DNA of 64,000 nucleotides from an uncultured Gammaproteobacteria bacterium (GTDB lineage: Bacteria; Patescibacteriota; Microgenomatia; Levybacterales; GWA1-39-11). A program made the translations under genes and the position numbers. A model generated the notes under the pieces. It ran no database searches. It was given only the letters and a program-made list of their open reading frames with translations, and was not told the DNA's origin. The stretch spans positions 37,804 to 101,803 of the forward strand of contig CAZDED010000001.1 in the NCBI GenBank assembly GCA_964504535.1. Reading direction: 5' to 3'. This document shows positions 6,494-10,150 of this stretch, piece after piece (the stretch's first letter is position 1; the number at the start of each line of letters is the position of its first letter).

Positions 6494-6499
6494 AAACTA

Positions 6500-6560
6500 A
6501 TTATAGATTATAAACACGAAATCCGAATGTCGAAATTCGAAACAAATTTCAAATCACAAT
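6500..6560. repeat. AT-rich palindromic intergenic repeat (family member R1; motif cgaaatccgaatgtcgaaattcgaaacaaat)
   Basis: Shares a core of about 30 nt with 8750..8790 and, in inverted orientation, with 6908..6953, 8795..8835 and 10030..10150. Confidence 0.7.
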
Positions 6561-6907
6561 TACTCAGACTTCTTAAGTATAGCCCCAAATATATTCATTA
6601 ACTCTGTAGCTTCCTGTAATAATTCTTCCCTTTCCTGACTATAAGCAAGTAATCTTAGCCAAAATCGTGTTTCCTTGGCTTCTTTTCGTGAAATCTTAAT
6701 CCTCATTATGAAATCTTTTTTACTTAGAGAGTCGTTTGCTTCTATATAATTTGCACCAATCGAACCTGATGAGCGTACTAGTTGTTTAATATCATCAATA
6801 GAAGATACTGATTTTGGAATAATCTTAACATACTCGCGAACTTTAGAGGCAAACTGAAAAGTTCTTTCTTCTAAATCATACTGTTTGGAATTTTTAGCTT
6901 CGGACAT
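6560..6907 (-). CDS. four-helix-bundle protein (TIGR02436 / 23S rRNA intervening-sequence protein family)
   Basis: 115 aa; SIGANYIEA and ETRFWL motifs characteristic of this family. Confidence 0.8.
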   Translation of the reverse strand: MSEAKNSKQYDLEERTFQFASKVREYVKIIPKSVSSIDDIKQLVRSSGSIGANYIEANDSLSKKDFIMRIKISRKEAKETRFWLRLLAYSQEREELLQEATELMNIFGAILKKSE

Positions 6908-6953
6908 TGGAGTTTATTTCGTGCTTCGAATTTAGAATTTCGAATTTATGTAA
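6908..6953. repeat. AT-rich palindromic intergenic repeat (R2; tttcgtgcttcgaatttagaatttcgaattt)
   Basis: Inverted version of the R1 core; recurs at 8795..8835. Confidence 0.7.
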
Positions 6954-8735
6954 TTATTGGGAGGCATCTGCTACATCACTTTCTTCGAGCCTGAGTAACC
7001 CCTCGTCAAGCCTTTTTTGATCTAAGAAGTGTGCAATAAATCCTACTGACCTTGAGAGTACAAAGAGTGCATTGAAAAATTCCGCTTGTATAAGTTCCCA
7101 CAACTGCTCGTCACTATATCCCTCTTTTTCAGAAAGATAATCAAGCAATACTGCAGCGATACTACCATCTATATTTAGAATTAAATTCCCCTTCTTCTCC
7201 GTCGTTATCTTTTCAACTTCCATCGCAAATTTGCTAAACCTCTTCTTCTCTAATCTATTTGCGTATTCCATGATTTCACCAACTCTTGGGTCTGGCATAT
7301 CTACTCTATATTTTTTGTGCCCAATCCCCTGTATATAAACTTTCTTACTTGCTGATTCTTCAACAAAAGCGCTTGCACTTTTTCCATCAACAACTCCAGA
7401 GAACCAGTTGCGTGCTGCTTCATTTAAAGCTCCTCCAAATCGTGGACCAATGGTAAGTAACCCTGCAGAAAGAGAGGAAACCAGATCCCGTCCTGCACGA
7501 GCCGATACTATCGTATTTAATGCTCCTGAAACATATGGCCCGTGGTCAACTGATACTCGCAGTATAAAATCCACAAACTCTTCAGTGTCTGGTAACACTA
7601 TCTTTTTCCCTAAGAATAGAGAAGCAGCAATCTTTGCAAATGAATTTTCTTTTGCAAAAGAGAGTAGATCCTCACCCAAAATTTTGACGTCCCCATCAAC
7701 ATCTTTTGAGATACTTGATGAAATAAGTGCATGTTTGCGATCGTCCATATTTTCAATTGTATCATTCGGACTTTCAAAACCAAAATCATCCAAAGTTCCA
7801 ATCAACTGTACAAATTCTGAAAAAGTCTCAGGAACTTTTGCACCCGCTTTTTTGAGAGCTTCCCTTTTTGCTTTTGCTGATTCTTCATTTTTTTCTGCCA
7901 TTGCTTTTGCGTGTCCGAATTGTGGAGGAGTCTCAAATAGATCTGAGATAGTACCTGCAACATAACAGATGACAGGTTTTGTAATATGTCCTACTTCCAA
8001 AAGCTTAGCTAATTTATATTCATCTTCCCCACCCAATTCCCCGTAATACACAATAGCCTTTGTCTCCTCATCCTTCTGTGCGACCATAAGTGCATCGACC
8101 GGCTCGAGTAATGGAAATCTGTCACCACCAAAAGAAAGTGAAAAGCTAACTTTATTGTGCGTATTGTTAACGACATTTATTATTTCGTTTACCATCCCTC
8201 CTGATGCTGACAAAACACAAACTCCACCTTTTGAGAGCAAACCGGATGAAGTAATTTGTTTTGTCGATACTCCACCAATGGCACCGAGCTTTAGAACACC
8301 TGGGATAACAAGACCTACGCTTGAAGGACCAATCAAGGTTACATTTTTATCTTTGGCATATTCAAAAAGATCAATGGAATGCTTTTCAGGAACACCTTCT
8401 GCAAAAATTGTTCCAATTTTCATATTGGGGAATGTATCAATAGCCTCAACCATAGAGGTTAATGCTCTTCTTCCTGAGCTTACATTGAGAACCGTGTTAA
8501 CATCTTTTTTCACGTTTTCAGGAATGACAGACAGAGTAGAGTAGACCGGTAATAGCACTTCCCTCCTTCCGAAGAAAAACCTTACAAATTTTCGTCCTGT
8601 TGCCACGATTCCAACGATTGATGGAGTGGTGTGCCCTATCAAAAAATCATAATCAAGCATGGATTGGATTATCCCTGGATGATTACCTATTACTATTATT
8701 TTCGATTGTGTTTTTCTTAAAAGTTCAATATCCAT
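6954..8735 (-). CDS. aclA: ATP-citrate lyase large subunit (CoA-binding/succinyl-CoA-synthetase-alpha-like domain fused to citrate-synthase-like domain)
   Basis: N-terminal CoA-binding (KIIVIGNHPG), phosphohistidine loop PQFGHAKA (compare ACLY QFGHAGA), C-terminal citrate-synthase-like signature GHKKYRVDMPDPR; size 593 aa typical of bacterial AclA. Confidence 0.8.
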   Translation of the reverse strand: MDIELLRKTQSKIIVIGNHPGIIQSMLDYDFLIGHTTPSIVGIVATGRKFVRFFFGRREVLLPVYSTLSVIPENVKKDVNTVLNVSSGRRALTSMVEAIDTFPNMKIGTIFAEGVPEKHSIDLFEYAKDKNVTLIGPSSVGLVIPGVLKLGAIGGVSTKQITSSGLLSKGGVCVLSASGGMVNEIINVVNNTHNKVSFSLSFGGDRFPLLEPVDALMVAQKDEETKAIVYYGELGGEDEYKLAKLLEVGHITKPVICYVAGTISDLFETPPQFGHAKAMAEKNEESAKAKREALKKAGAKVPETFSEFVQLIGTLDDFGFESPNDTIENMDDRKHALISSSISKDVDGDVKILGEDLLSFAKENSFAKIAASLFLGKKIVLPDTEEFVDFILRVSVDHGPYVSGALNTIVSARAGRDLVSSLSAGLLTIGPRFGGALNEAARNWFSGVVDGKSASAFVEESASKKVYIQGIGHKKYRVDMPDPRVGEIMEYANRLEKKRFSKFAMEVEKITTEKKGNLILNIDGSIAAVLLDYLSEKEGYSDEQLWELIQAEFFNALFVLSRSVGFIAHFLDQKRLDEGLLRLEESDVADASQ

Positions 8736-8739
8736 ATTT

Positions 8740-8835
8740 TGAACTACTAAACTCGAAATCCGAATATCGAAATTCGAAACAAATTAAAAATATCAAATTT
8801 AAAACTAGTTTCGTGCTTCGAATTTAGAATTTCGT
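8740..8835. repeat. composite AT-rich palindromic intergenic repeat (R3; contains both R1-type and R2-type cores)
   Basis: ctcgaaatccgaatatcgaaattcgaaacaaat ... gtttcgtgcttcgaatttagaatttcgtgc. Confidence 0.7.
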
Positions 8836-8837
8836 GC

Positions 8838-10025
8838 TTATCCTACATGCCTCAATGCTGGTTCTACTATGTCTGTCAACACTAACTCCGGTCCGTGAAT
8901 TTCACCTAACAACTCTTCTTTCTCTAAAAAGGTCTTCATCATAGATAACCCTTCTTCCTGATGAGGCCCTCCGCGTCTCACAAAAATTTTCACATTTTGG
9001 GCTCTTAATTTTTCAGATACTTCCCCCAATGCTTTTATTATTCCTTTAAAAGTGATCCTTACATCCGTAAAATTGGCAACTCCACCGGAGATTATTATAG
9101 ATTTATTATGGGATGTAGAACGGAGTAGAGTAGCCAAAATTTGTTTGACGTATAAATACGTCTCTTCCTCAGTTGGACTACCACTGTATTCTCCATAGTT
9201 TGCCAGTTCTTTCCCTTTACCTTTCTGGTATATCTCGTCAGCAGTAACAAGCGATGCTCCTCCACCCGACAGTAATACAAATATTGAGCCATTGGGGTTT
9301 ATGAGCTGAAAACTTAATGCAGCTGGGGTTGTTTCTTTTAACTCCTCGATCGCCTTTTCTTCTTCAGTTTTTTGGACTCTTCCACCTTCCCTAAAGTCAT
9401 TTTTACTCCACACCCCATCTACAAAAAATGATGCCTCACTGTCTACCTCAACTGCTGCATCAAGGAAAAAATATTTTTCTCCCTGACTTACAAGGGGATT
9501 TATTTCTAAAAATGAAAAATAGTAATTATCAAATGCTGTGATTATGCTTTCTAAAGTCTCGACAGAAATCTGAAGAGTTCTTGCAATGTCTTCATACTGA
9601 GCATAATCCGTCAGAACTGAAGTCGTTATAGAATCTTTATTTTCTTCTATGTCTATTCCACCTTTTGTTGCAAAATGCACTCTCTTTCCTTCACGAACGC
9701 GCTCTATAGCCAGATAAAACTCGTCACTACTTTCGTGTTCGAGAAACTCCTCGAGTATGAAATAGGAAAATCCCTTTTCTTTCAATTTTCCAATCTCCTC
9801 CTCAACGTTTTCTTTCGTTACACCTAGTGATATAAGCCCTTTTTTCTTTCTTTGCTTTACCCCCTGGTCAACTTTCAGGACATATTTCTTACCATCCTCC
9901 ATTTGAGATAGGATTTTTTCCAAATACTCTCTTGTCGAGTCTATTGAAATACCACCGTAGGGAACTTCTAAAAAGTCGTAAAGGATTTTCTTTGCACGAA
10001 ACTCTGAAATTTTCTTTCTCGCCAT
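8838..10025 (-). CDS. aclB: ATP-citrate lyase small subunit (ATP-grasp, succinyl-CoA-synthetase-beta-like)
   Basis: Recalled alignment to the N-terminal part of eukaryotic ACLY over most of the length: KKISEFRAKKILYDF (ACLY: KAISEQTGKELLYKF), YFSFLEINPLV, LLSGGGASLVTADEI, ELANYGEYSGSPTEEETY, IISGGVANFTDVRITFKGII, IFVRRGGP. Confidence 0.85.
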   Translation of the reverse strand: MARKKISEFRAKKILYDFLEVPYGGISIDSTREYLEKILSQMEDGKKYVLKVDQGVKQRKKKGLISLGVTKENVEEEIGKLKEKGFSYFILEEFLEHESSDEFYLAIERVREGKRVHFATKGGIDIEENKDSITTSVLTDYAQYEDIARTLQISVETLESIITAFDNYYFSFLEINPLVSQGEKYFFLDAAVEVDSEASFFVDGVWSKNDFREGGRVQKTEEEKAIEELKETTPAALSFQLINPNGSIFVLLSGGGASLVTADEIYQKGKGKELANYGEYSGSPTEEETYLYVKQILATLLRSTSHNKSIIISGGVANFTDVRITFKGIIKALGEVSEKLRAQNVKIFVRRGGPHQEEGLSMMKTFLEKEELLGEIHGPELVLTDIVEPALRHVG

Positions 10026-10027
10026 AT

Positions 10028-10150
10028 ATTTATTATACTAAATTCGAAGCACGAAGCACGAATTTCGAAACAATTCAGAAACTATAATATATCAAATTTC
10101 AAACATCCTGATTTGGGATTTGTTTCGGATTTAGAATTTCGATATTAGAA
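10028..10150. repeat. AT-rich palindromic intergenic repeat (R4; inverted R2-like and R1-like cores)
   Basis: attcgaagcacgaagcacgaatttcgaaac ... atttgtttcggatttagaatttcgatattagaatttcc. Confidence 0.65.

Follow-up and report, generated by a model that had tools for sequence, protein, structure and literature searches.

The 64,000-nucleotide stretch of contig CAZDED010000001.1 analysed here (forward-strand positions 37,804 to 101,803; hereafter the window, in whose own coordinates all positions are given) contains, between 5.5 and 10.0 kb, a run of genes that are all encoded on the − strand. These are the ATP-citrate lyase (ACL) beta gene (8838-10025), the ACL alpha gene (6954-8735), an open reading frame (ORF) for a four-helix-bundle (4HB) protein of 115 amino acids recognised by PF05635 (6560-6907), and murB (5528-6493). 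A sequence-only reading of this region had described related AT-rich palindromic repeats in four of its spacers and had offered three options for them: elements like repetitive extragenic palindromes (REPs) or the miniature transposable elements with inverted repeats known as MITEs, transcription terminators, or operator sites for a common regulator. It did not link the repeats to the adjacent 4HB gene, which the full-length form of the repeat carries.

The relatedness of the repeats in the four spacers is real. Their core, CGAAATTCGAAAC, has 16 matches with at most 2 mismatches in the window against 2.4 expected, a number reached by 0 of 100 shuffles, and 10 of the 16 lie within 6531-10141. 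A repeat search of the window returned two three-copy families, D3 (at 6511, 8748 and 10039) and D5 (at 6917, 8809 and 10116), whose units have a 7-nt period, with (CGAAnnn)4 on one side and (nnnTTCG)4 on the other. In-phase runs of at least 3 such heptads occur at only six sites in the 64 kb, namely 6517-6541, 6918-6942, 8747-8778, 8810-8834, 10038-10069 and 10124-10148. All six fall between 6.5 and 10.2 kb.

These runs form the arms of three elements on the − strand, A, B and C, with a G+C content of about 27-29%. Element A consists of an arm, a gene and an arm. Its 5' arm, ATAAATTCGAAATTCTAAATTCGAAGCACGAAATAAACTCCA (6908-6949), abuts the 4HB ATG, contains the four in-phase heptads at 6918-6942 and fits the ATG-anchored family consensus given below, while its 3' arm (6510-6559) comprises an inner spacer (6544-6559) that follows the stop codon and then GTTTCGAATTTCGACATTCGGATTTCGTGTTTAT (6510-6543), with the heptad run at 6517-6541. 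In order, this element has four heptads of the form CGAAnnn, a linker of 14 nt, the 4HB gene from its ATG to its stop codon, about 35 nt more, and four inverted nnnTTCG heptads. Elements B and C consist of an arm, a short loop and an arm, without an ORF. In B, the 5' arm ATAAGCACGAAATTCTAAATTCGAAGCACGAAAC (8808-8841) includes the position at which ACL beta terminates (TAA, 8838-8840) and is followed by a loop of 27 nt that holds no ORF (8781-8807, from the predicted fold) and by the 3' arm GTTTCGAATTTCGATATTCGGATTTCGAGTTTAG (8747-8780, from the fold and the heptad run). In C, the 5' arm AAATTCTAATATCGAAATTCTAAATCCGAAACAAA (10119-10153, with the run at 10124-10148) shows 70% identity to the corresponding arm of A, the inner region and loop occupy 10074-10118 in the predicted fold, and the 3' arm TTGTTTCGAAATTCGTGCTTCGTGCTTCGAATTTAG (10038-10073, with the run at 10038-10069) stops 12 nt short of the ACL beta ATG. 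The distances from the ends of B and C to the ACL alpha and ACL beta start codons are 12-20 nt. The 5' arm of B differs from that of A by 4 mismatches in 34 positions, compared with a best value of 5 and a median of 11 against 441 other arms, and the two share a CGAA-CTAA-CGAA pattern that is seen in 11 of the 441; these comparisons lend modest support to B being a local derivative of A.

The suggestion that each of the four spacers folds as a hairpin held for two of them. The spacers of B (8736-8837) and C (10026-10170), each of which contains both types of arm, have predicted sense-strand folds of -26.4 kcal/mol (z -4.1) and -26.2 kcal/mol (z -2.2), respectively, whereas spacers 6494-6559 and 6908-6953, folded singly, gave no significant structure (z -0.5 and -2.1). 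The latter two spacers hold one arm each of a single element, which makes three elements in place of four hairpins. When the 472 nt that span them are folded, the minimum-free-energy structure pairs the arms of A with each other across the 4HB gene; the duplex of the two arms has a predicted energy of -30.4 kcal/mol.

The product of the gene inside element A belongs to the family annotated as '23S rRNA intervening sequence protein' (PF05635, E 7e-13; TIGR02436, E 2e-18; PDB 2RLD, E 8e-12), and it has no match in PADLOC or PHROGs. A similarity search with this protein returned at least 8000 relatives, of which the best 120 listed are 63-100% identical to it. The closest homologues in the match list often lie on contigs of less than 2 kb, as expected from repeat-induced assembly breaks, and the three source-named matches among those quoted are of Levybacteria type (Patescibacteria-like). 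The accessory variability determinant (Avd) of diversity-generating retroelements (DGRs), a member of the same PF05635 fold family, is a nucleic-acid-binding pentamer that binds reverse transcriptase and template RNA. A Xanthomonas protein of the 4HB fold is reported to be a pentamer as well (PMC4990558). Features that define the intervening sequences (IVSs) of 23S rRNA genes that encode S23p-type proteins recur at element A: the ORF is a PF05635 ORF, it is bracketed by stem-forming inverted repeats, and tandem heptamers stand directly upstream of its start, as in Coxiella.

To assess how generally 4HB genes are accompanied by heptad arms, we used a sample drawn by protein similarity, which is not biased by the motif. 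It consists of 80 metagenome loci whose 4HB proteins are 58-68% identical to that of the window, with 64 genes that have complete flanks. At least 3 in-phase C[GT]AA heptads were found within 70 nt upstream of 49 of the 64 genes, at least 3 TT[CA]G heptads within 104 nt downstream of 51, and arms on both sides of 43. Heptads in the wrong orientation were found in 1 and 0 cases, and none of 156 background windows had such a run. The architecture of the arms is also constant, with a run length of exactly 4 heptads in 42/64 and 41/64 arms and with the core of the last heptad starting 14 nt before the ATG in 41 of 49; a gapless alignment anchored at the ATG gives the consensus tAAATtCGAAataCGAAa.tCGAAATcCGAAACAAATTCaAATGACc.... 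Gene-carrying elements follow the strand of their surroundings, 31 having the same orientation as both neighbours and 1 being opposite to both.

Several further features of the elements in this sample deserve mention. In 5 of the 64 (L124, L148, L180, L185 and L190), all heptads of both arms have changed from CGAA/TTCG to CTAA/TTAG, and an element of this TTAG type is also present at L204:4002-4087. We considered whether such variants track a clade of the protein, an idea that was rejected on finding that their 4HB proteins are not each other's closest relatives. The pattern points to a concerted change of about 8-10 repeat units that would have occurred several times independently. A switch of the whole array would imply either homogenising copying between heptads and arms or host-specific selection, for which selection against TTCGAA restriction sites is a candidate. 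At five loci (L124, L135, L159, L172 and L181) the 4HB element stands directly 3' of a gene with a conserved ...DPRKYL* tail, which is tentatively leuC-like; this context occurs in at least 5 organisms of very different G+C content, as an old insertion or the repeated use of one operon spacer. G+C-rich palindromes of about 40 nt (e.g. CCCGCCCGCCTCGCCTGAGCGAGAGCGATGGCGGGCAGG) are nested in the AT-rich 3' arms of L134, L149 and L150 and resemble a second small element inserted into the first.

The association extends to distant members of the 4HB family. For 12 genes on plasmids of cultured bacteria, whose products are 34-45% identical to the window protein (hosts Nostoc, Anabaena, Dolichospermum, Pseudanabaena, Gloeocapsa, Euhalothece, Chlorohelix, Bernardetia and Treponema), period-7 repeats flank the gene in 12/12 cases and 7 is the best lag in 23 of the 24 flanks. 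At those distant loci that were inspected visually or with an inverted-repeat search, the array on one side is inverted relative to that on the other. The heptad unit differs at each locus (AATTCGT/ACGAATT, ATTCAAA/TTTGAAT, GGATGAA/TTCATAA, TGGTCAC, TTGCGAC, CTCTCCG and others), and what is conserved with the 4HB family is therefore not a sequence but the period of 7 nt together with the inverted layout. Six of these distant genes with heptad arms (L207, L213, L214, L209, L212 and L216, on cyanobacterial and Chlorohelix plasmids) lie inside defence-type clusters. Among the contexts, two genes are located between cas2 and cas1, on the strand opposite to them, and there are positions next to cas1, between a helicase and an N6-methylase gene, and between a gene with DUF1156 and a HEPN gene of the Swt1 type.

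A complementary picture emerges from a sample based on the motif. We derived a 27-nt pattern from the 3' arm, with 20 specified bases and one two-fold position, for which about 0.5 matches are expected by chance in 596 Gb if uniform base composition is assumed, and more in AT-rich DNA. It is present at at least 120 loci in the set of species-representative genomes, and this excess, along with the ordered heptads, rules out the notion that the similarity is mere low-complexity A/T bias. Among the matches listed, the loci fall in 10 phyla (Patescibacteria, Desulfobacterota, Acidobacteriota, Planctomycetota, Pseudomonadota, Verrucomicrobiota, Omnitrophota, Binatota, Armatimonadota and Chloroflexota). 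One complete genome, of Dehalogenimonas, and one from a single cell are among the sources, and 10 matches are on viral contigs of IMG/VR. Most matches are imperfect palindromes without an ORF, with a median length of 148 nt (70 ORF-less elements), that fit tightly between genes, are located immediately 3' of stop codons and have sharp boundaries of the form AAAT(Y)CGAA...TTCG(R)ATTT. Crude ORF calls that put some of the matches 'inside' genes are unreliable and were disregarded. No conserved motif of 23S or 16S rRNA was found at any of about 200 loci, all of which lie between protein-coding genes, and the window has no rRNA match, so the 23S rRNA location typical of S23p-type IVSs is not shared. 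Rfam gave no match in the window at gathering thresholds and only chance, miRNA-like matches at permissive E-values for element B and a typical element, and a literature search for the repeat strings returned only two unrelated primer matches.

The ORF-less copies retain traces of the gene. They keep GAAACAAATTCAAATGACCAAAATTCAAAA, which joins the arm to the first 4HB codons (MTKIQNSKQ), and many ORF-less hairpins keep GAAACAAATTCAAATGACCAAAATTCAAAACAA, in which arm, ATG and first codons match 4HB N-termini. When two ATG-containing signatures were scored, at least one was present in 49 of the 70 ORF-less elements and both were present in 21. The retention of the first codons shows that the ORF-less copies are deletion derivatives of the gene-carrying form, and we take B and C to be internal-deletion derivatives that have lost the gene.

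Comparison with relatives documents gain or loss of the elements. In L201, a close relative with 97% identity in the 4HB protein and 97-98% in murB and ACL alpha, element A is found at the same place. Element B is missing from this relative, whose ACL genes are 1 nt apart, and so is element C, at whose position there is an unrelated spacer of 57 nt; the flanks are too diverged for exact empty-site junctions of B and C to be defined against L201. The more distant, syntenic relative L204 (4HB protein 76% identical) has kept A and holds a different, TTAG-type element at the site of B. Within genomes, ORF-less copies are more similar to each other (median identity 0.756 within an assembly versus 0.652 between assemblies; Mann-Whitney p = 7e-7), and the best within-genome pair, on different contigs, reaches 96% identity. 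These elements are thus gained or lost between close relatives and multiply within genomes.

Taken together, we judge it fairly probable that the repeats of the window represent, in three copies, one palindromic element built of heptads and belonging to the S23p-type 23S rRNA IVS kind, located in the spacers of a protein-coding operon. The mechanistic part of this reading is held with moderate confidence. The element would be transcribed together with the operon, and its arms may pair into an interrupted stem of about 28-34 bp that hides the ATG of the 4HB gene. By analogy with the IVSs of Coxiella and Leptospira, RNase III could then cut the stem. Cutting of this kind would segment the polycistronic RNA, which would make insertion between cistrons harmless. 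The 4HB protein, in turn, may recognise the heptad arrays and serve the copying or maintenance of the element. We infer that it reads the heptads because the layout is fixed at 4 x 7, the constraint acts at the level of sequence, and the relatives of the same fold are pentameric and bind nucleic acid.

Evolutionary comparison offers one view of what is conserved in these elements. When the window is compared with L204, dN/dS for the 4HB gene is 0.086 with synonymous sites that are saturated (pS 0.71, dS about 2), and the gene's dN of 0.18 is similar to those of murB and ACL. The non-coding arms are alignable over the same distance, with 40/43 identical positions in the 5' arm and 43/54 in the region of the 3' arm, and the sequence just outside them is unalignable. 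These values indicate purifying selection on both the 4HB protein and the arms. We then asked, in a gapless alignment of 40 arm pairs whose register was confirmed by slide controls, how far the two arms of an element are matched to each other. The covariation score alone stood out, at 0.136 versus 0.108 in shuffled pairs, with 1 of 500 shuffles reaching the observed value. Element-specific covariation of the arms, considered as an explanation of their pairing, was rejected as weak, their complementarity being mostly a matter of sequence conservation across the family. It is mainly a by-product of two conserved arrays that stand inverted. Element B folds better on its sense strand; the family has no such bias, and this asymmetry was not used as evidence.

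A number of observations weigh against the reading given above, and in particular against a selected RNA stem. Standard pairs occupy 78.5% of cells versus 77.2% after shuffling of partners, with 16 of 500 shuffles reaching the observed value. The CGAA:TTCG blocks, which account for nearly all of the pairing, pair in 78-100% of elements and the 3-nt spacers in only 22-60%, and cognate arms are better paired than non-cognate ones by only about 3 kcal/mol (p = 0.016). On the sense strand, G-U is no more frequent than C-A (85 vs 91), and duplex energies of sense and antisense strands are equal across the family. A selected RNA stem should show an excess of G-U, and what is constrained in the arms may therefore be their sequence, in the form of protein sites, rather than a helix. 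A gene for RNase III was not found in the 64-kb window, which is uninformative for the rest of the genome, and we know of no catalytic activity of 4HB proteins. Finally, the 4HB gene at this locus shows long vertical inheritance and a constraint like that of housekeeping genes, a pattern equally compatible with a domesticated function and with a selfish one.

In one alternative, the elements form a domesticated cis-regulatory module: the heptads would be binding sites of the 4HB protein on mRNA or DNA, with A autoregulated and with B and C placing the ACL genes under the same control. The conservation of the arms far beyond that of neutral sites over a dS of about 2, the fixed number of heptads (4) and distance to the ATG (14 nt), a constraint on sequence rather than on pairing, and the position of B and C 12-20 nt before the ACL alpha and beta starts are all in its favour, and a site for a translational regulator has been proposed for other heptamers located just upstream of start codons (PMC4679880). 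On the other hand, L201 has the same ACL genes without B and C, the gene contexts across the 10 phyla are unrelated, and ORF-less copies multiply within genomes, occur on viral contigs and show no preferred strand relative to their neighbours (17 vs 12). On balance we consider this module rather unlikely. Operators for a common regulator, one of the options raised from the sequence, are possible in the sense that the element's own protein may bind the heptads, and they fit poorly with a relative that lacks B and C.

It is very unlikely that the repeats are ordinary MITEs, that is, non-autonomous remnants of insertion sequences (ISs) which a DDE or HUH transposase encoded elsewhere would mobilise in trans and in which the 4HB gene would be a passenger. 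The copies are built as inverted repeats, intergenic, multi-copy and variably present, and an IS1595-type transposase gene is located 4 kb away in L204. B and C also resemble MITEs in being short non-coding elements with terminal inverted repeats, present in multiple genomic copies and in some relatives only. However, among 57 elements no excess of direct repeats indicative of a target-site duplication was found for k = 2-5 at any tested offset, and neither such a duplication nor an autonomous partner that encodes a transposase is part of the family as observed; no transposase gene is adjacent in the window. Moreover, the arms vary with the 4HB gene, the 12 distant genes having 12 different heptad units, and the ORF-less copies hold the first codons of the 4HB gene rather than of a transposase. 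Among the options of the sequence-only reading, a REP- or MITE-like nature nevertheless comes closest: the elements are palindromic, intergenic, variably present in close relatives and organised in within-genome families. They differ from classical MITEs and REPs, however, in having no detected target-site duplication and no visible transposase partner, and in the 4HB gene carried by the full-length form.

Passive RNA hairpins, acting as terminators or as REP-like stabilisers of the 3' end of the upstream message, are hardly credible, since despite their strong predicted folds (-26 to -80 kcal/mol across elements) and a position right after stop codons the elements have no G+C-rich stem or T/U tract, are reported neither as intrinsic terminators nor as promoters by consensus scans, sit inside operons between co-transcribed partners (the two ACL subunits; a gene ending like leuC), and would leave the gene-carrying form and the cross-phylum conservation of sequence unexplained.

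A broader hypothesis is put forward here as a tentative possibility. In this hypothesis, 4HB genes and their inverted period-7 arms would constitute an unrecognised and widespread class of self-propagating elements in which a pentameric protein reads heptads, the 23S rRNA IVS would be one special case, and gene-less descendants would explain cyanobacterial short tandemly repeated repetitive (STRR) sequences, the GGGAATC pairs of Xanthomonas and the TAACTGA arrays. Among the small proteins of bacteria and metagenomes that lack an explanation, the 4HB '23S rRNA intervening sequence' proteins belong to the most common, and intergenic heptamer repeats have gone without explanation for decades; the two are joined here in a fixed, inverted architecture of 4 + 4 heptads that is under selection and from which gene-less copies derive and multiply. 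The elements are also of practical relevance to annotation, in that they break assemblies, fill operon spacers and insert into defence operons (cas2/cas1; restriction-modification-like clusters).

Other features of the window were noted in passing. The ACL of 6954-10025 is of the two-gene type, with an ATP-grasp/citrate-binding subunit and a CoA-ligase/citrate-synthase subunit, and the pair lies near murB and fusA in a genome of 39% G+C. Neighbours within 4 kb of the 4HB gene are ACL alpha/beta, murB, a HhH-GPD glycosylase gene and an AP endonuclease gene. About 1 kb downstream of an intact fusA there is a 125-nt fragment that is 85% identical to the 3' end of fusA (pair 10171-10295 / 11210-11334), and between the two copies of this end (10332-11200) are two + strand ORFs of 186 and 103 aa without a match in Pfam, NCBIfam, PADLOC or PHROG. 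In its last 30 nt, the fragment matches the fusA ends of L204 and L201 better than the intact gene's own end does, and it appears from this similarity that fusA was invaded at its 3' end by an insert of about 1 kb, which provided a new end in place of the old one. At 2041-2300, units of the ACTCCAAC type form a coding repeat (six copies, 69-100% identity, spacing 18-24 nt) that probably encodes a Thr/Pro-rich low-complexity stretch.

Among known systems, the DGR protein Avd shares the PF05635 fold family with the 4HB protein. Unlike Avd genes, the 4HB gene here has no reverse transcriptase gene or template/variable repeat pair beside it: within 4 kb its neighbours include ACL and murB, and the only repeats are the heptad arms. 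MITEs and REPINs (REP doublets forming hairpins) resemble the elements in that short palindromic, non-autonomous copies accompany a longer, gene-carrying form and are intergenic, multi-copy and different in presence or absence between relatives. In contrast to those systems, the elements show no target-site duplication, their partner encodes neither a transposase nor a REP-associated tyrosine transposase (RAYT), and their arms consist of four 7-nt units instead of a single terminal repeat. REPs and REPINs in the strict sense are G+C-rich palindromes of 20-40 bp with a GTAG or CGTC head and an associated RAYT, whereas the present elements are AT-rich, built of heptads and 95-200 nt long.

Intergenic heptamer repeats are a second point of comparison. 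The STRR sequences of cyanobacteria are intergenic repeats of heptamers. Unexplained intergenic heptamers have also been described as GGGAATC in Xanthomonas, with 70-75 convergent inverted pairs, and as GGGGAYT in Anabaena (PMC4692102), and TAACTGA arrays, likewise unexplained, occur in Beggiatoaceae, Cyanobacteria and Bacteroidetes (PMC4679880). These repeats share with our elements the 7-nt period, a frequent position just upstream of start codons, the inverted pairs (in Xanthomonas) and a patchy distribution across phyla without a known mechanism, and they differ in their units. Neither PMC4692102 nor PMC4679880 mentions four-helix-bundle, S23 or intervening-sequence proteins, and no statement of a link between the gene and heptads outside rRNA was found in the literature searched, whose coverage is incomplete and does not include the family notes of databases.

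The closest parallel is the S23p-type IVS of Coxiella burnetii and Leptospira. In the 23S IVS of Coxiella, the S23p ORF is located in a stem-loop with a terminal stem of 28 bp, three tandem GACAGAT heptamers and a degenerate fourth stand directly upstream of the ATG in strain-variable copy number, and RNase III cleaves the stem at the first repeat (PMC4990558). Earlier authors suggested that the IVS is a mobile element whose ORF serves its mobility (PMC4990558), and the IVS literature also includes Ralph and McClelland 1993, as cited in PMC4990558. Both systems have a PF05635 ORF in a long stem-loop of terminal inverted repeats, 3-4 tandem heptamers upstream of the ATG in an arm of about 28 nt (4 x 7), and a sporadic, horizontal distribution, and the IVS has been regarded as a selfish element for which the ORF was proposed to supply a factor of its own. 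The differences are equally clear. The IVS occupies helix 25 or helix 45 in the gene for 23S rRNA, and the present elements lie between protein-coding genes; the Coxiella unit is GACAGAT, compared with CGAAATY here; and Coxiella has a near-perfect stem and a decaying ORF, in contrast to the interrupted stem and the ORF under strong purifying selection described above. ORF-less derivatives and intragenomic families, which are not reported in PMC4990558, complete the contrast. The element of this window thus appears to be an IVS-type element in a new setting, one with gene-less derivatives and belonging to a very widespread family.

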